Positions 1,273 through 55,383 of a stretch of 64,000 nucleotides of DNA are shown one piece after another (the first letter of the stretch is position 1; each line of letters starts with the position of its first letter). Location of the stretch: sequence record ON528738. One strand, written 5' to 3'. Both the position numbers and the translations under genes were made by a program. The notes below the pieces were generated by a model that ran no database searches, was not told the DNA's origin, and was given only the letters and a program-made list of their open reading frames with translations. The stretch is from Shigella phage ESh28.

Positions 1273-1298
1273 GGGAGAGCCTCGGCTCTCCCTTTTTT
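1273..1298 (+). terminator. intrinsic terminator after gene 52 / small ORF
   Basis: GGGAGAGCC-TC-GGCTCTCCC stem-loop followed by TTTTTT. Confidence 0.7.
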
Positions 1299-1322
1299 AT
1301 TTTAAATTTTTTTCACAAAACG

Positions 1323-1352
1323 GTTTACAACCAAAGCATACTGTGGTACTAT
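1323..1352 (+). promoter_or_regulatory. early-type promoter (-35 GTTTAC, -10 TACTAT)
   Basis: GTTTAC 1323-1328, 18-nt spacer, TACTAT 1347-1352; AT-rich upstream; near-identical copy at 17993-18022. Confidence 0.55.
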
Positions 1353-1401
1353 ACAACTATCAAATAAATGAACTGAAACAAACAACCCGGAGATACAAAA
1401 A

Positions 1402-17011: not shown

Positions 17012-17920
17012 ATGTTTAAACGTAAATCTACTGCTGAACTCGCTGCACAAATGGCTAAACTGGCTGGAAACAAAGGTGGTTTTTCTTCTGAAGATAAAGG
17101 CGAGTGGAAACTGAAACTCGATAATGCGGGTAACGGTCAAGCAGTAATTCGTTTTCTTCCGTCTAAAAATGATGAACAAGCACCATTCGCAATTCTTGTA
17201 AATCACGGTTTCAAGAAAAATGGTAAATGGTATATTGAAAACTGTTCATCTACCCACGGTGATTACGATTCTTGCCCAGTATGTCAGTATATCAGTAAAA
17301 ATGATTTGTACAACACTGACAATAAAGAGTACGGTCTTGTTAAACGTAAAACTTCTTACTGGGCTAACATTCTTGTAGTAAAAGACCCAGCTGCTCCAGA
17401 AAATGAAGGTAAAGTATTTAAATACCGTTTCGGTAAGAAAATCTGGGATAAAATCAATGCAATGATTGCAGTTGATGTTGAAATGGGTGAAACTCCTGTT
17501 GATGTAACTTGTCCGTGGGAAGGTGCTAACTTTGTACTGAAAGTTAAACAGGTTTCTGGATTTAGTAACTACGACGAATCTAAATTCCTGAATCAATCTG
17601 CGATTCCAAACATTGACGATGAATCTTTCCAGAAAGAACTGTTCGAACAAATGGTTGACCTTTCTGAAATGACTTCTAAAGATAAATTCAAATCGTTTGA
17701 AGAACTGAGCACTAAATTCGGTCAAGTTATGGGAACTGCTGTGATGGGCGGTGCTGCTGCAACTGCTGCTAAGAAAGCTGATAAAGTTGCTGATGATTTG
17801 GATGCATTCAATGTTGATGACTTCAATACAAAAACTGAAGATGATTTTATGAGCTCAAGCTCTGGCAGTTCATCTAGTGCTGATGACACAGACCTGGATG
17901 ACCTTTTGAATGACCTTTAA
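17012..17920 (+). CDS. 32: gp32 single-stranded DNA-binding protein
   Basis: 302 aa, [38 protein letters not shown]; acidic Ser/Asp-rich C-terminus; upstream pseudoknot operator. Confidence 0.9.
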
Positions 17921-17942: not shown

Positions 17943-17967
17943 GGGGACCCTAGAGGTCCCCTTTTTT
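17943..17967 (+). terminator. intrinsic terminator after gene 32
   Basis: GGGGACC-CTAGA-GGTCCCC followed by TTTTTT. Confidence 0.75.
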
Positions 17968-17992
17968 ATTTCAAAAATTTTTTCACAAAACG

Positions 17993-18022
17993 GTTTACAC
18001 CCTTGTCCTTCCATGGTACTAT
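17993..18022 (+). promoter_or_regulatory. early-type promoter (-35 GTTTAC, -10 TACTAT)
   Basis: GTTTAC 17993-17998, TACTAT 18017-18022; flanks near-identical to 1301-1360. Confidence 0.55.
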
Positions 18023-18065
18023 ACAACTATCGGCAATACTGCTGATGATTAAAGAAGAAAATAAT

Positions 18066-18293
18066 ATGGCTAAAGTTGATATTGACATCGTTGATTTTGA
18101 ATATATCGAAGAAATTATTCGTAATCGTTATCCTGAACTTAGTATCACAAGCGTGCAAGATTCTAAGTTTTGGAGTATTCAAATCGTTATTGAAGGTCCT
18201 CTTGAAGACCTCACCCGCTTTATGGCTAATGAATATTGTGATGGTATGGATTCTGAAGACGCAGAATTTTACATGGGATTGATTGAACAATAA
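18066..18293 (+). CDS. hypothetical protein (75 aa)
   Basis: ATG 18066 ([12 protein letters not shown]...); track start 18003 is TTG. Confidence 0.45.
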
Positions 18294-18703: not shown

Positions 18704-18737
18704 TTTACAGAAGGGTAGTAGTGTGATACTATTACCC
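18704..18737 (+). promoter_or_regulatory. early-type promoter with -10 enclosed by an inverted repeat
   Basis: GTTTAC 18704-18709; TACTAT 18727-18732; inverted repeat GGGTAGT(18713-19)/ATTACCC(18731-37). Confidence 0.45.
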
Positions 18738-27007: not shown

Positions 27008-27063
27008 GTTTACAAGTCCCTCGTGTTGTGTTACAGTAGTCTTACTGACATAACATGAGGACT
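27008..27063 (+). promoter_or_regulatory. early-type promoter embedded in an SD-sequestering hairpin, upstream of alc (copy A)
   Basis: GTTTAC 27008-27013; -10-like TACAGT 27033-27038; inverted repeat AGTCCCTCGTGTT(27015-27)/AACATGAGGACT(27052-63) includes SD GAGGA. Confidence 0.5.
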
Positions 27064-30308: not shown

Positions 30309-30347
30309 GTTTACTTTACGGTAGAGTTGTGATATTATAGCTCTACC
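30309..30347 (+). promoter_or_regulatory. early-type promoter with -10 enclosed by an inverted repeat
   Basis: GTTTAC 30309-30314; TATTAT 30333-30338; inverted repeat GGTAGAG(30320-26)/CTCTACC(30341-47). Confidence 0.45.
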
Positions 30348-34242: not shown

Positions 34243-34282
34243 GTTTACTTTGGTACAGGATATGATATTATATACCTGTACC
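34243..34282 (+). promoter_or_regulatory. early-type promoter with -10 enclosed by a perfect 8-bp inverted repeat
   Basis: GTTTAC 34243-34248; TATTAT 34266-34271; GGTACAGG(34252-59)/CCTGTACC(34275-82). Confidence 0.5.
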
Positions 34283-38649: not shown

Positions 38650-40746
38650 ATGATGGAACTCATTACAGAATTATTTGACGAAGATACTACTCTTCCGATT
38701 ACAAACTTAAATCCAAAGAAGAAAATACCACAAATTTTTTCAGTTCATGTTGATGACGCAATTGAACAACCAGGCTTTCGTTTATGTACCTATACATCTG
38801 GAGGTGATACTAATCGCGATTTAAAGATGGGCGATAAAATGATGCATATTGTTCCTTTTACATTAACTGCTAAAGGTTCAATTGCTAAATTAAAAGGTCT
38901 TGGTCCAAGCCCAATTAATTATATCAATTCAGTTTTTACTGTTGCAATGCAAACAATGCGCCAGTATAAAATTGATGCTTGTATGCTTCGTATTCTTAAG
39001 TCTAAAACTGCTGGCCAAGCTCGACAAATTCAAGTTATTGCTGATAGACTTATCCGTAGTCGTTCAGGTGGCAGATACGTCCTTCTTAAGGAACTCTGGG
39101 ATTATGATAAAAAGTATGCATATATTCTTATACATCGCAAAAATGTATCACTAGAAGACATTCCAGGAGTTCCGGAAATTAGTACCGAGCTCTTTACTAA
39201 AGTTGAATCGAAGGTCGGTGATGTTTATATCAATAAAGATACTGGGGCTCAAGTAACTAAAAATGAGGCAATTGCAGCATCTATTGCACAAGAAAATGAT
39301 AAACGTTCTGACCAAGCTGTAATCGTTAAAGTTAAAATTTCACGTAGAGCAATTGCGCAAAGTCAATCATTGGAATCTTCTAGATTTGAAAGTGAATTAT
39401 TCCAGAAGTATGAATCTACCGCAGCTAATTTCAATAAACCTGCTACAGCTCCTTTAATTCCTGAAGCAGAAGAAATGAAGCTTGGAATTAATTCATTAGC
39501 TTCTAAAACTAAGGCAGCAAAAATTATTGCTGAAGGAACTGCAGATGAACTTCATTATGACTATAAATTCTTTTCAAAAAGTGAGGTTAATGAAGTTTCT
39601 GAAAAAATTAAAGATGTAATTCTTAATGCGATTAAAAATGAACCAACTACTTCAATAAAATGTTTAGAGAAATACGCAGCAGCTGTTAATCAATTATTTG
39701 AAGAATATAAAGATAACTGGCTTGATAAACATAATAAAACTCGTAAAGGACAGACAGATGAAGTCTGGGAAGAAATAACTAAAAATTCCTGGAACGCAGC
39801 AAAAACTAAATTCCTCAAACGAATGATTTATAGCTTTTCTGGAATTGGTGCAGGTCCAATGATTGATATTACTATTGCCCGTGATGGTTCTAAATATACT
39901 CCATCACAAAAGCGCGGCATTAGAGAGTATTGTGGTTCAGGATATACTGACATCAATAATCTTCTTTTAGGACGCTACAATCCAGAACGATATGATGTAA
40001 TGAGTGAAAAAGAAATTGAATCTGCTATAAATAACTTAGATTCAGCTTTTGAAAATGGTGACCGTATACCAGAAGGCATTACAGTTTATCGTGCTCAAAG
40101 TATGACTGCTCCTATATATGAAGCGTTAGTTAAAAATAAAGTGTTCTACTTCAGAAATTTTGTATCTACTTCTTTAACTCCTATCATTTTTGGACGTTTT
40201 GGAATCACACATGCTGGTATTGGTCTTTTAGAACCAGAAGCTCGCAATGAATTAACAGTTGATAAAAATGAAGAAGGAATAACTATTAATCCAAACGAAA
40301 TAAGAGCGTATAAAGAAAATCCTGAATACGTTAAAGTTCAAATAGGATGGGCAATTGATGGAGCTCATAAAGTTAATGTTGTATATCCAGGAAGTCTCGG
40401 AATAGCAACAGAAGCTGAAGTTATTCTACCGCGTGGATTGATGGTCAAAGTTAATAAAATAACTGATGCTTCTAATAATGACGGAACAACATCTAATAAT
40501 ACAAAACTCATTCAAGCTGAAGTTATGACCACGGAAGAGCTCACCGAATCGGTAATCTATGACGGAGACCATTTAATGGAAACCGGTGAAGTAGTTGCAA
40601 TGACAGGTGATATTGAAATAGACGACAGAGTTGACTTTGCATCATTTGTTTCATCAAATGTTAAACAGAAAGTAGAATCATCTCTTGGAATTATTGCGTC
40701 TTGCATAGATATTACAAACATGCCTTACAAGTTCGTTCAAGGATAA
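38650..40746 (+). CDS. alt: Alt ADP-ribosyltransferase (virion-packaged; modifies host RNA polymerase)
   Basis: 698 aa; ART-like R-S-E elements (YRAQ, FVSTSL, EAEVILPRG); late promoter TATAAATA 28 nt upstream. Confidence 0.8.
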   Translation: MMELITELFDEDTTLPITNLNPKKKIPQIFSVHVDDAIEQPGFRLCTYTSGGDTNRDLKMGDKMMHIVPFTLTAKGSIAKLKGLGPSPINYINSVFTVAMQTMRQYKIDACMLRILKSKTAGQARQIQVIADRLIRSRSGGRYVLLKELWDYDKKYAYILIHRKNVSLEDIPGVPEISTELFTKVESKVGDVYINKDTGAQVTKNEAIAASIAQENDKRSDQAVIVKVKISRRAIAQSQSLESSRFESELFQKYESTAANFNKPATAPLIPEAEEMKLGINSLASKTKAAKIIAEGTADELHYDYKFFSKSEVNEVSEKIKDVILNAIKNEPTTSIKCLEKYAAAVNQLFEEYKDNWLDKHNKTRKGQTDEVWEEITKNSWNAAKTKFLKRMIYSFSGIGAGPMIDITIARDGSKYTPSQKRGIREYCGSGYTDINNLLLGRYNPERYDVMSEKEIESAINNLDSAFENGDRIPEGITVYRAQSMTAPIYEALVKNKVFYFRNFVSTSLTPIIFGRFGITHAGIGLLEPEARNELTVDKNEEGITINPNEIRAYKENPEYVKVQIGWAIDGAHKVNVVYPGSLGIATEAEVILPRGLMVKVNKITDASNNDGTTSNNTKLIQAEVMTTEELTESVIYDGDHLMETGEVVAMTGDIEIDDRVDFASFVSSNVKQKVESSLGIIASCIDITNMPYKFVQG

Positions 40747-40749
40747 ATC

Positions 40750-42807
40750 ATGGAACTTATTACAGAATTATTTGACGGCGCTTCGGCGCCGGTTGTTAAC
40801 TTAAATCCTAAGCATAAAATACCACAAATTTTTGCTATTCAAGCCGGTGAAGAAAGCGTTCTTCCTGGATTTAGATTTTGTACATACACCTCTGGCGGTG
40901 ATACGAATAAAAACGTTAAGCCAGGCGACAAAATGATGCATATCGTAATGATAGGTGTTAATGAAAAATTATCATTAGTTAAGCTTAAAAACTTGGGTGG
41001 AAATCCAATTGGCGTCATTAATGCTGTTTTTGATACTGCTCTTCAAACAATGAAACAGTATAAAATTGATGCATGCCTATTCCGCGTACTAAAAAGTAAA
41101 ACAAATGGCGCTGCTCGTCAAATGCAAGTTATTGCTGACCGTTTAGTACGTACTAAAGGAGCAGGTCGATATGTTCTTTTAAAGGAAATCTGGGACTATG
41201 ATAAGAAATATGCATATATTATGGTTTACCGTAAAAATGCCAATTTAGAAGACATTCCAGGTGTACCTCCTATTTCAACTGAGTTATTCACAAAAGTTGA
41301 ATCGAAAGTCGGTGATGTTTATGTAGATGTTAAAACAGGTAATGCTGTTCCTAAAGCTGTTGCTGTTGCTGCTTCTATTGCTTTAGAAAATGATAAGCGC
41401 ACGGACCAAGCTGTTATTCAGAAAACTAAAATTAGTCGTCGATTAGCAGCACAAGCTCAATATTCTACTGTTGATGCTTCACTTCAGGGTGATAGCTTCG
41501 CTGCTAAGAAATATCAAGAGTTTGAATCTAAAGTTCCGGTGTATAAAGCAGAAGGACCAATGAACTCTGGCGTTATTCAAATTGGTTCAAACTTCAGCAA
41601 AGGAGCTATAGGCGGTATGAGAAGCGCTTCTCGTTTTAAATCTAGTGATTATGAACTCGAAAGCTTCCGAAATCATATTGCATTAGCCCATGCACGTTTA
41701 CGTGATCCATCTATCAAGTTACAGAGCGATATAACATATCAAGGTTCTCAAGAATATTTAAAGAATAAAGAATTCTTTGATTATAAGACTGATAAAATTT
41801 TAAGCGATCTTGCTGATATTAATATTTCTAATAGCTTTGATGTTATTAAGAAAATTATCAATGATTTGGTTAAAGGTTCTAAAGCTACGCCAGATGAAAA
41901 GACAGCTATTATTCAATTTGTCATGAATGGCATTTATAAATTGATTAATGAATCTGCTGCTCAGGCATATGAATACGCAAGCACTGAAGTAACTCCAAAA
42001 GGATTAACTCAAGCTGAATCTGATGTAATTGAAGATTATTGTGCAGATTCATATGTTGAAATGAACTCGTTCCTTTTGGGTAAACCAGATTCTACCCGTG
42101 AAGAATATATGGAACGAGCTATTAAACATATTGAGACGCTTGATTCTGCATTCGCTAAAGGTTCAGTTCTTCCTCCAGGAACTACACTTTACCGTGGACA
42201 AGAAGTTACCTTTAAAACTTTGCGTCATAACATTGAAAATAAAATGTTCTATTTCAAGAACTTCGTATCGACATCACTTAAACCAAATATATTCGGTGAG
42301 CATGGTAAAAACTATATGGCTCTAGATGATTCCGGCGCAGTATTTTCTGGCGAAGGAGAAGGTTCTGTTGATGCAGAAGATTTGATGCATATGGGTAGTC
42401 ATTCTACATATGCTAATGAAGATGCTGAAACTAGCGTGGGTATGGTAATTAAAGGAGCTGAGCGAATTAAAGTTATCGTTCCGGGTCATTTATCAGGATT
42501 TCCATCAGAAGCTGAAGTTATTCTACCGCGTGGAATTTTACTGAAGATTAATAAAGTAAGTACTTACTTTATGAAAGAAACTGCTTATAACAAGTATCTA
42601 ATCGAAGGTACAATCGTTCCTCCTTCTGAACAATTAGAGGAATCAGTATATGATGGCGACCATCTAATGGAAACTGGTGAAGTTCGTCCAATGACTGGAT
42701 TTAATCAATTCCTTGTCGAAGAATCAAAAGAAGAGGAAAACGAAGTTTCTCAAATCTTAGCTTCTTTGGTTAACATTAACGGAATGTCTAAAAAGTTCAA
42801 AATGTAG
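40750..42807 (+). CDS. Alt-like ADP-ribosyltransferase paralogue (second tandem copy)
   Basis: 685 aa; N-terminal ~230 aa roughly two-thirds identical to upstream Alt by eye; diverged middle; same ART elements (YRGQ, FVSTSL, EAEVILPRG). Confidence 0.75.
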   Translation: MELITELFDGASAPVVNLNPKHKIPQIFAIQAGEESVLPGFRFCTYTSGGDTNKNVKPGDKMMHIVMIGVNEKLSLVKLKNLGGNPIGVINAVFDTALQTMKQYKIDACLFRVLKSKTNGAARQMQVIADRLVRTKGAGRYVLLKEIWDYDKKYAYIMVYRKNANLEDIPGVPPISTELFTKVESKVGDVYVDVKTGNAVPKAVAVAASIALENDKRTDQAVIQKTKISRRLAAQAQYSTVDASLQGDSFAAKKYQEFESKVPVYKAEGPMNSGVIQIGSNFSKGAIGGMRSASRFKSSDYELESFRNHIALAHARLRDPSIKLQSDITYQGSQEYLKNKEFFDYKTDKILSDLADINISNSFDVIKKIINDLVKGSKATPDEKTAIIQFVMNGIYKLINESAAQAYEYASTEVTPKGLTQAESDVIEDYCADSYVEMNSFLLGKPDSTREEYMERAIKHIETLDSAFAKGSVLPPGTTLYRGQEVTFKTLRHNIENKMFYFKNFVSTSLKPNIFGEHGKNYMALDDSGAVFSGEGEGSVDAEDLMHMGSHSTYANEDAETSVGMVIKGAERIKVIVPGHLSGFPSEAEVILPRGILLKINKVSTYFMKETAYNKYLIEGTIVPPSEQLEESVYDGDHLMETGEVRPMTGFNQFLVEESKEEENEVSQILASLVNINGMSKKFKM

Positions 42808-42862
42808 TTTACAAGTCCCTCATGTTGTGTTATAGTAGTCTTACTGACATAACATGAGGAAC
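42807..42862 (+). promoter_or_regulatory. early-type promoter embedded in an SD-sequestering hairpin (copy B, near-identical to 27008-27063)
   Basis: GTTTAC 42807-42812; TATAGT 42831-42836; inverted repeat CCTCATGTT(42818-26)/AACATGAGG(42851-59) includes SD GAGGA. Confidence 0.5.
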
Positions 42863-53964: not shown

Positions 53965-55383
53965 ATGACTTTTACAGTTGATATAACTCCTAAAACACCA
54001 ACGGGGGTTATTGATGAAACCAAGCAGTTTACTGCTGCACCCAGTGGTCAAACTGAAGGTGGAACTATTACCTATGCTTGGAGTGTAGATAATGTTCCAC
54101 AGGATGGAGCTGAAGCAACCTTTAATTATGTATTAAAAGGACCTGCTGGTCAAAAGACTATTAAAGTGGTTGCAACAAATACAGTTCCAGAAGCTGAAGC
54201 TGAAACAGCTGAAATTAGTACAACTATCACAGTTCAAAATAAGACACAGACAACTACCTTAGCTGTAACTCCTAATAGTCCTCCAGAAGGAGTAATCGGA
54301 ACAGCTGTTGAATTTACTGCTGCTTTAGCTTCGCAGCCATCGGGCGCAACTGCTACGTATCAATGGTACGTTGACGATTCTCCTGTGGGCGAAGCAACTT
54401 CTGCTACATTCAATTATACTCCTACTACAAGCGGAGTTAAAAAAATTAAGTGTGTAGCTCAAGTAACTGCTGATGATTATAATGCACTGAGCGTTACTTC
54501 TAATGAAGTATCATTGACGGTTAATAAAAAGACGCAGACAACTACATTGGCAGTAACTCCTGCTAGTCCTTCAGCTGGAGTAATTGGAACCCCAGTTCAA
54601 TTTACTGCTGCCTTAGCTTCTCAACCGTCTGGAGCGTCTGCTACGTATCAATGGTATGTAGATGACTCTCAAGTTAGTGGAGAAACTAACTCTACATTTA
54701 ACTATACTCCAACTACAAATGGAGTCAAAAGAATTAAATGCGTAGCCCAAGTAACTGCTGATGATTATAATGCAAAAGAAGTTACTTCCAATGAAGTATC
54801 ATTGACAGTTAATAAGAAGACAATGAATCCACAGGTTACATTGACTCCTCCTTCTATTAATGTTCAGCAAGATGCTTCGGCTACATTTACGGCTAATGTT
54901 ACGGATGCTCCAGAAGAAGCACAAATTACTTACTCGTGGAAGAAAGATTCTTCTCCTGTAGAAGGGTCAACTAACGTATATACTGTCGATACCTCATCTG
55001 TTGGAAGTCAAACTATTGAAGTTACTGCTGTCGTTGCAGCAACTGATTATGATAGCAAAACAGTTAAAACAACAGGTCAAGTTCAAGTGACTGATAAAGT
55101 TGCTCCTGAACCAGAAGGTGAATTACCTTATGTTCATCCTCTTCCACATCGTACTTCAGCTTACATCTGGTGCGGTTGGTGGGTTATGGATGAAATCCAA
55201 AAAATGACTGAAGAAGGTAAAGATTGGAAAACTGAAGATCCAGATAGTAAGTACTACTTGCATCGTTACACTCTTCAGAAGATGATGAAAGATTATCCAG
55301 AAGTTGATGTCCAAGAATCGCGTAATGGATACATCATTCACAAAACTGCTTTAGAAACTGGTATCATCTATACCTATCCATAA
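53965..55383 (+). CDS. hoc: Hoc highly immunogenic outer capsid protein with an extra Ig-like domain
   Basis: 472 aa vs 376 in T4 as recalled; MTFTVDITPKTPTGVIDETKQFTAAP; tandem near-duplicate ~96-aa Ig-like modules; conserved capsid-binding C-terminus. Confidence 0.85.
   Translation: MTFTVDITPKTPTGVIDETKQFTAAPSGQTEGGTITYAWSVDNVPQDGAEATFNYVLKGPAGQKTIKVVATNTVPEAEAETAEISTTITVQNKTQTTTLAVTPNSPPEGVIGTAVEFTAALASQPSGATATYQWYVDDSPVGEATSATFNYTPTTSGVKKIKCVAQVTADDYNALSVTSNEVSLTVNKKTQTTTLAVTPASPSAGVIGTPVQFTAALASQPSGASATYQWYVDDSQVSGETNSTFNYTPTTNGVKRIKCVAQVTADDYNAKEVTSNEVSLTVNKKTMNPQVTLTPPSINVQQDASATFTANVTDAPEEAQITYSWKKDSSPVEGSTNVYTVDTSSVGSQTIEVTAVVAATDYDSKTVKTTGQVQVTDKVAPEPEGELPYVHPLPHRTSAYIWCGWWVMDEIQKMTEEGKDWKTEDPDSKYYLHRYTLQKMMKDYPEVDVQESRNGYIIHKTALETGIIYTYP
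54238..54522 (+). repeat. hoc: hoc internal tandem repeat, copy 1 (one Ig-like domain)
   Basis: Encodes NKTQTTTLAVTPNSPPEGVIGTAVEFTAALASQPSGATATYQWYVDDSPVGEATSATFNYTPTTSGVKKIKCVAQVTADDYNALSVTSNEVSLTV. Confidence 0.8.
54523..54810 (+). repeat. hoc: hoc internal tandem repeat, copy 2
   Basis: Encodes NKKTQTTTLAVTPASPSAGVIGTPVQFTAALASQPSGASATYQWYVDDSQVSGETNSTFNYTPTTNGVKRIKCVAQVTADDYNAKEVTSNEVSLTV; high nucleotide similarity to copy 1 by eye. Confidence 0.8.

Follow-up and report, generated by a model that had tools for sequence, protein, structure and literature searches.

The window, a stretch of 64,000 nucleotides of the Shigella phage ESh28 genome (record ON528738) with a G+C content of 36%, is, on the grounds of its sequence, that of a T4-like phage of the genus Tequatrovirus; bases 1100–2400 matched more than 700 phage records, of which Tequatrovirus genomes are the best at 99.2% identity. 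The early-transcription direction of T4 corresponds to the + strand of the window. On this strand, the 3' end of gene 52 is followed by motA.1, a first cassette, an open reading frame of 75 codons (ORF75), a second cassette and motA. At a second locus, the end of gene 32 (near 17920) is followed by a third cassette and then by frd.3. In T4, motA.1 is followed by a terminator, a promoter and motA with no intervening gene. The three early promoters are called A, B and C below, and the cassettes carry the same letters. The features are as follows.

1118–1267, + strand: motA.1 homologue, 49 aa, last gene of the upstream transcription unit gp52–motA.1 (alignment with T4 motA.1; phrog_3487)
1272–1303, + strand: intrinsic terminator after motA.1, 9-bp stem AGGGAGAGC/GCTCTCCCT, loop CTCG, then TTTTTTATTT
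1303–1352, + strand: early promoter A of the T4 PmotA type, with the UP-like A/T tract TAAATTTTTTTCACAAAACGG and a start predicted near A1359
1357–1379, + strand: leader repeat, copy 1, 23 nt exact, −2 to about +21 of the predicted ORF75 mRNA
1364–1731, + strand: Dhakavirus (JS10)-type block, comprising leader, ORF75, second stem-loop, second promoter and second leader
1402–1629, + strand: ORF75, the 75-aa accessory (cargo) gene, with the Shine-Dalgarno sequence GGAG at 1389–1392; absent from T4
1643–1658, + strand: weak stem-loop of the second cassette, GCTCTT-GAAA-AAGAGT, no T-tract
1670–1697, + strand: early promoter B of the JS10 type, −35 TTTACT (1670–1675), 16-nt spacer, TGA, −10 TACTAT (1692–1697)
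1702–1724, + strand: leader repeat, copy 2, 23 nt exact, at the predicted 5' end of the motA mRNA
1725–1735, + strand: motA Shine-Dalgarno sequence and RegB-type site GGAGATTAAAA, 10 of 11 positions of GGAGRAYARAA, abutting the leader repeat
1735–2370, + strand: motA, 211 aa, T4-type from 1744 onward
17943–17971, + strand: intrinsic terminator of gene 32, GGGGACC-CTAGA-GGTCCCC, then TTTTTTATTT
17972–18031, + strand: early promoter C upstream of frd.3, TTTACA (17994–17999), TGG and TACTAT (18014–18022), start predicted at about 18029
18066–18293: frd.3 (Pfam match Phage_FRD3), downstream of promoter C

The hairpin after motA.1 (1272–1293) is recovered by a terminator scan and folds as RNA at −20.0 kcal/mol (z = −5.3); a terminator at this site is also annotated in the records of relatives. 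The gene 32 hairpin (17943–17961, 7 stem pairs, −14.3 kcal/mol) is likewise recovered by the scan and is kept at the same position in about 480 records. For the stem-loop of the second cassette, the fold of 1627–1670 gives −9.5 kcal/mol (z = −2.25), and its JS10 counterpart is intact (GAGCTCTT-GAAA-AAGAGCTC). Since the ESh28 version is weak and has no T-tract, it probably does not terminate transcription. Promoter and terminator are already marked at both the motA.1 and the gene 32 sites in the records of two Yersinia phages, and the GenBank records of T4 have no promoter features annotated at these two sites.

Promoter A consists of a −35 element TTTACA (1324–1329), a 17-nt spacer, TGG (1344–1346) and a −10 element TACTAT (1347–1352). 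It departs from its T4 counterpart at two minor points of the A/T tract upstream and is identical to it from the −35 element through CTATCAA. Promoter C equals promoter A in the UP-like tract, the −35 element, TGG, the −10 element and the start region ACAACTATC, with an unrelated spacer. Promoter B, with a start predicted near A1704, is also found upstream of motA in JS10, IME281 and vB_EcoM_005. All start sites are predictions derived from the usual 7-nt distance to the −10 element. The A/T-rich tract upstream of the −35 element reads TTTTTTATTT(T/C)AAA..TTTTTTCACAAAACGG in A and C and GAAAAAGAGTGCAAAAAAGTG in B. The consensus of the E. coli UP element has a distal part, AWWWWWTTTTT, and a proximal part, AAAAAARNR, and we take the tract TAAATTTTTTT-CACAAAACG to be a near-consensus UP element. 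From these sequences and from T4 we infer promoter activity at cassettes A, B and C and terminator activity at A and C; the near-identity of A and C to their T4 counterparts suggests that these two would be active immediately after infection with the unmodified host RNA polymerase.

A canonical middle promoter was rejected for promoter B, in which TGCTTTA lies 7 nt from the −10 element and not at 12±1, and a late promoter (TATAAATA) was excluded by eye. The TGCTTTA motif itself (1678–1684) resembles a MotA box, is located within the spacer of the promoter that would drive motA, and is kept in JS10, in vB_EcoM_005 and in the promoters of the ORF75 homologues of phages Merlin and RZH. The T4-type motA promoter has TGCTTT in its spacer on the opposite strand (bottom strand of window positions 1333–1338). 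In the window, TGCTTTA occurs 32 times vs 18.2 expected. It is possible that MotA feeds back onto its own promoter via the spacer TGCTTTA.

Cassettes of this construction are known as the promoter-early stem-loops (PeSLs) of Arbiol et al. 2010 (PMC2839356) and Comeau et al. 2014 (PMC4122927). A PeSL is described as a strong sigma-70-type promoter with an A/T-rich upstream tract and a terminating stem-loop; PeSLs are located between early genes, beside small genes of unknown function, and their promoter and terminator activity was demonstrated experimentally in RB49/phi1 (PMC2839356). In the T4/PST consensus, TTTACW-N17-TAYWAT, the stem-loop lies just upstream of the promoter (PMC4122927). T4 early promoters in general are combined UP/−35/TGn/−10 promoters with additional consensus regions (PMC2988021). 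In ESh28, A and C read TTTACA-N17-TACTAT and B reads TTTACT-N16-TACTAT, with a TGn motif and an A/T-rich tract in all three. A and C have a stem-loop followed by a T-tract, and the weak hairpin of B corresponds to the degraded form described in PMC4122927. The cassettes are intergenic and are followed by a Shine-Dalgarno sequence and a start codon, and the presence of ORF75 varies among relatives.

The cassette pair after motA.1 and after gene 32

The preliminary description of the window held that the sequence following the terminator at 1273–1298 recurs past gene 32. This is borne out: positions 1287–1361 and 17957–18031 are 79% identical over 75 nt without a gap. The full cassettes span 1272–1361 after motA.1 and 17943–18031 after gene 32, and both are also found in T4. 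The similarity is concentrated in two exact blocks, TTTTTTCACAAAACGGTTTACA (22 nt; 1308–1329 and 17978–17999) and TGGTACTATACAACTATC (18 nt; 1344–1361 and 18014–18031). In 100 dinucleotide-preserving shuffles per block (the two promoter blocks and the 23-nt leader discussed below), 0.00 matches were expected for TTTTTTCACAAAACGGTTTACA and 0.02 for TGGTACTATACAACTATC. Within 3 mismatches, TTTTTTCACAAAACGGTTTACA matches nothing else in the window, and TGGTACTATACAACTATC matches one other site, promoter B, with 3 mismatches. A and C differ in their promoter spacers (about 15 nt) and in their terminator stems (GGGAGAGCC... vs GGGGACC...). Both copies are kept in all eight Tequatrovirus genomes compared.

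The pair is most likely an old duplication of one promoter subtype, with the functional modules held by selection. It is also conceivable, if unlikely, that A and C converged independently on the optimal early-promoter consensus and are not copies of one cassette. The two have in common precisely the functional modules (T-tract, UP-like tract, −35, TGn/−10 and start region), the terminator stems and spacers are unrelated, and looser versions, CA-AAA...GTTTAC and CTATCAAA, are found in other early promoters, all as convergence would have it. However, the exact blocks of 22 and 18 nt far exceed the family consensus, and the 22-mer has no counterpart within 3 mismatches in any other promoter of the window. 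In the 40 nt upstream of the −35 element, the identity of the A/C pair is 0.78 vs a mean of 0.39 (sd 0.10) for the 55 pairs formed by the eleven early promoters of the window, and in T4 the motA.1-side and gene-32-side copies are identical to each other over 41 nt. A hint against convergence comes from phage phiC600P9, which has a PmotA-type spacer at its gene-32-side promoter. Polymorphism, on the other side, is not concordant between the copies: at the T/C site of the UP tract, the copies carry the same base in 5 of 8 genomes, with about 4.6 expected by chance, so ongoing gene conversion or concerted evolution between A and C is unsupported.

The spacer of the gene-32-side promoter (18000–18013) has two unrelated alleles, tccttgtccttccat and agcataaagctttat, among close relatives (T4 plus six others), both of which sit between identical −35 and −10 modules. 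In phiC600P9 (MZ681930.1, locus 380–430), a deletion joins the 3' end of gene 32 straight to the promoter spacer, taking out the gene 32 stop codon, the terminator, the UP tract and the −35 element; the spacer retained there is of the motA-promoter type (CAAAGCATACTGTGG). This junction could have arisen by exchange between the cassettes, or it could be an artefact of the assembly.

Elsewhere in the window, a second duplicated promoter with its leader is found at 27008–27061 and 42807–42860 (54 nt at 96% identity). The repeat spans the −35 element, the whole spacer, the −10 element, the leader and the Shine-Dalgarno sequence (GTTTACAAGTCCCTC.TGTTGTGTTA.AGTAGTCTTACTGACATAACATGAGGA), and its spacer and leader can pair to form a long imperfect hairpin around the −10 element. 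The first copy precedes a 168-aa ORF (27066), presumably alc. The second precedes a 96-aa ORF (42868), and the 685-aa ORF just upstream of the latter (40750–42807) is presumably alt. There is also a 288-nt tandem duplication at 54229–54804 (80% identity), and two pairs of similar segments (38695–38852 and 40789–40946; 40399–40462 and 42496–42559) are 72–80% identical and about 2.1 kb apart. The second copies of both pairs lie inside the 685-aa ORF, which suggests tandem paralogues.

ORF75 and the Dhakavirus-type block

To call the repeat a duplicated terminator–promoter–leader cassette, as was done initially, is a fair description, which missed why the leader is duplicated: its two copies flank ORF75 within a JS10-type block. 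ORF75 is present in 167 phage records and belongs to phrog_10955, a PHROG family without known function. A Pfam search gave no domain match, and the single-sequence AlphaFold2 model has a pLDDT of 56.7, which is too poor for a fold search. Located directly upstream of motA, the master activator of middle genes, ORF75 is a candidate host-takeover or anti-defence gene. Among the sampled Tequatrovirus matches, the region upstream of motA occurs in both forms, one with ORF75, which aligns in two pieces, and one lacking it, which aligns in a single piece. In ESh28, the promoter on the motA.1 side precedes ORF75, not motA, and motA lies behind the second, JS10-type promoter.

Of 367 aligned bases in the block, 360 (98%) are identical to JS10, in contrast to 71% in the gp52 flank and 63% in the motA flank. 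Informative sites in the three-way comparison of the window, T4 and JS10 map the breakpoints: the window is T4-like up to 1356, JS10-like at 1364–1731 and T4-like from 1744, which places the crossovers in CTATCAA (1357–1363) and in AAAATGTCTAAA (1732–1743). These two microhomologies bound the block, the second being at the start of motA, and both breakpoints lie inside cassettes. In JS10 itself, ORF75 (98.7% amino-acid identity) lies between two 65-nt repeats of promoter plus leader (94%), and their spacing of 345 nt is that found in the window. The Dhakavirus vB_EcoM_005 presents the empty site, in which motA comes directly after a single cassette that has this promoter and this leader, vs the filled site of JS10. 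In another Dhakavirus-type contig, the same terminator, promoter and leader are found at a different locus, where the gene behind them is an unrelated one of 84 aa.

More distant homologues of ORF75 likewise occur as single genes with early promoters on either side, whose −10/leader segments are repeated. They adjoin motA in phage Merlin and are found elsewhere in the genome in Enterobacter phage RZH and Klebsiella phage K65PH164. In Citrobacter phage Merlin (locus 1000–2140), three small genes lie between gp52 and motA, the first of which is the ORF75 homologue. This homologue, the next gene and motA each have their own early promoter, and the third small gene has none and follows directly. 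The gp52–motA interval is a hot spot.

With good confidence, we regard the repeats as ordinary T4-type terminator plus early-promoter cassettes (PeSLs) and the duplication of the leader as the footprint of a recombined ORF75 module. Each cassette would comprise a terminator or stem-loop, a very strong early promoter for the host sigma-70 polymerase and then a short leader that is A-rich and unstructured, with GGAG as the ribosome-binding site. It would halt transcription incoming from upstream and restart it right after infection, at about 1359 for ORF75, 1704 for motA and 18029 for frd.3. The 23-nt repeat would then be a direct repeat bracketing a one-gene module, that is ORF75 with its downstream cassette, and no separate regulatory device. 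A Dhakavirus-type donor would already have had ORF75 between the 65-nt cassette repeats, and a double crossover with a T4-type genome, through CTATCAA on the left and AAAATGTCTAAA at the start of motA on the right, would have replaced the 16–18-nt motA leader of T4. The left crossover would have trimmed the left repeat to 23 exact nucleotides (36 nt at 92% identity).

The pattern found here fits the modular shuffling by PeSLs that was proposed before (PMC2839356). One way in which a PeSL could bring in a gene is the single-crossover (Campbell-type) insertion of a mini-circle, by which the leader repeat would have been created on the spot as ORF75 entered. Such circles, which form when neighbouring cassettes recombine, were demonstrated for RB49 and phi1 (PMC2839356), and the empty and filled sites of vB_EcoM_005 and JS10 fit an event of this type in the Dhakavirus lineage. 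For ESh28, however, this route is improbable. Its junctions should lie in the same register of the cassette, but the left one is in CTATCAA and the right one is about 30 nt further on, at the start of motA; the T4 leader, moreover, is missing on the right side and not retained there, and JS10 already has the repeat with the same 345-nt spacing. Junctions at different cassette registers and the loss of the T4 leader thus favour double-crossover replacement from a donor with an existing duplication over mini-circle insertion in the ESh28 lineage. The repeats and their anatomy, the variable presence of ORF75 among relatives, the breakpoints and the identity across genera are observed; beyond this, the sequences point to a transfer between Tequatrovirus and Dhakavirus types, which may have run in either direction and by the putative mechanism outlined above.

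A recombination event that joins the two leader copies of the window is predicted to remove 345 bp and to leave the junction ACAACTATCAAATAAATGAACTGAAACGGAG. This junction had 0 matches in IMG/VR and metagenome contigs. Among GenBank phages, the sampled single-piece matches to the synthetic empty site all have T4-type leaders and are at most 95.7% identical.

The repeated leader

The leader CTATCAAATAAATGAACTGAAAC occurs exactly twice in the window (1357–1379 and 1702–1724), as had been reported, with no further match at up to 3 mismatches and 0 expected, and the similarity extends to 36 nt at 92% identity (1344–1379 and 1689–1724). Given the predicted start at A1359, the repeat begins 2 nt earlier and extends over transcribed bases 1–21. 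The two-codon mini-ORF ATG-AAC-TGA is present in both leaders (1368–1376 and 1713–1721). The preliminary description had also allowed for the leader being purely promoter consensus. This holds for its first 8 nt, CTATCAAA, which also follow other early promoters of the window (e.g. at 18704, and as CTACCAAA at 30310), and fails for the other 15 nt, which have no other occurrence in the window. These 15 non-consensus nucleotides are explained by common descent; a function for them is not demonstrated.

In metagenomes, the 23-mer was found in T4-like contigs only, plus one unrelated contig, seemingly within a coding sequence and probably by chance. The minimum free energies of the leaders, 0 for copy 1 and −2.4 kcal/mol for copy 2, are no better than those of shuffled sequences, so an attenuator or riboswitch is rejected. 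A search of 1000–2500 against Rfam at a permissive threshold found no family; one sub-threshold match to SorY on the terminator (20 bits vs 111 needed) is a chance match.

The Shine-Dalgarno region that adjoins the leader is of interest with respect to RegB. The RegB/S1 target is a single-stranded 11-nt site with the consensus GGAGRAYARAA (PMC1702504), and in T4 RegB cuts the motA mRNA, a good substrate, within the Shine-Dalgarno sequence (PMC2988021). The motA site of ESh28 has 10 of 11 consensus positions, and the motA mRNA of ESh28 may be cleaved as well. The ESh28 motA site differs in lying just outside the 23-nt repeat, and the corresponding site of ORF75, GGAGATACAAA, has only 8 of the 11 positions.

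It is very doubtful that the 23-nt leader is a selected cis-regulatory RNA element kept before both genes. It could possibly act through its two-codon start–stop mini-ORF, as a standby site or brake for ribosomes, or else by binding S1 or a phage factor. The leader is exact in both copies and, in Dhakavirus-type genomes, exact before three different genes (ORF75, motA and the unrelated 84-aa gene); it is A-rich and unstructured, as would suit an S1-dependent leader, and it adjoins a RegB-type GGAG site. The regulatory role suggested for the mini-ORF, however, is not upheld. Its AUG has no Shine-Dalgarno sequence and, with about 9 nt of the predicted mRNA before it, is not at the 5' end. The orthologous motA leader of T4 (CTACTGATACAGAATTAC; past CTATCAA, CTACTGATACAGAATTACGGAGATTAGAAAATG) has nothing in common with it beyond CTATCAA and contains no ATG, yet motA is expressed normally in T4. 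In IME281, the motA-side copy reads ATGGTTATCGGAG, which changes the mini-ORF to ATG-GTT-ATC-GGA-GAT-TAA. Furthermore, cleavage by RegB/S1 needs no sequence 5' of GGAG (PMC1702504). Where the leader is kept, the adjacent coding DNA is likewise 98–100% identical, so the conservation is uninformative on selection. With no extra structure, no Rfam family, divergence in T4 and IME281 and no requirement for 5' sequence, the leader is best read as a recombination footprint and an open 5' UTR. It is just as doubtful that the 21 shared transcribed bases (AUCAAAUAAAUGAACUGAAAC) are under selection as a portable expression module carried along with the cassette. If true, this would explain the exactness before three unrelated genes in Dhakavirus-type genomes, and S1 or phage-factor binding or the start–stop mini-ORF would set early translation or mRNA decay.

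The 36% G+C of the window and the 23-mer in one unrelated metagenome contig might suggest that the repeats all match by chance or through the low complexity of A/T-rich DNA. This can practically be dismissed: there were zero matches in 100 shuffles per block, the copies lie in register between genes, and hundreds of related genomes have the same architecture.

Relation to known systems

Promoters A and C are near-identical to the T4 motA and frd.3 early promoters at the same two positions, with UP-like, −35, TGn and −10 elements. Unlike in T4, the promoter before motA in ESh28 is of the JS10 type, with another spacer and another leader.

ESh28 shares with PeSLs the order of elements, which runs from a stem-loop or terminator over the A/T tract and the sigma-70-type early promoter to a Shine-Dalgarno sequence with its start codon, and the location between genes, next to a small gene without known function that is missing from close relatives. 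ESh28 also departs from the described cases. Its crossover is at the start region CTATCAA, whereas the RB49/phi1 proposal places it in the A/T-rich tract; the stem-loop of its second cassette is degenerate; and its exchange is between genera and looks like a double-crossover replacement. At 30310–30345 and 34244–34280 of the window, and also in JS10 and Merlin, perfect inverted repeats of 7–9 bp, such as GGTAGAG...CTCTACC and GGTACAGG...CCTGTACC, bracket the −10 element of early promoters. These match the PeSL subclass in which the stem-loop overlaps the −10 box.

The morons of lambdoid phages are reportedly, after Hendrix and colleagues, accessory genes that are inserted between two others and bring a promoter and a terminator of their own. 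Like a moron, ORF75 is a single accessory gene in an autonomous transcription unit between conserved neighbours, present in some relatives and absent from others. The ESh28 module differs in being flanked by signals of a repeated family, which at the same time provides the homology for exchange, and in that the phage is virulent and the gene would be expressed early.

The cassettes are therefore of known kinds, T4 early promoters and PeSLs, and the ORF75 module with its base-resolved cross-genus breakpoints is a new example. For annotation, 1272–1361, 1640–1706 and 17943–18031 are to be read as terminator/early-promoter cassettes and not as a new element. With a site that is empty in one genome and filled in another, and with a chimeric recipient, the locus provides a base-resolved example of the trade of a single accessory gene across genera. 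Since recombination of this type takes place inside shared regulatory signals, the incoming gene would arrive pre-wired for early expression.
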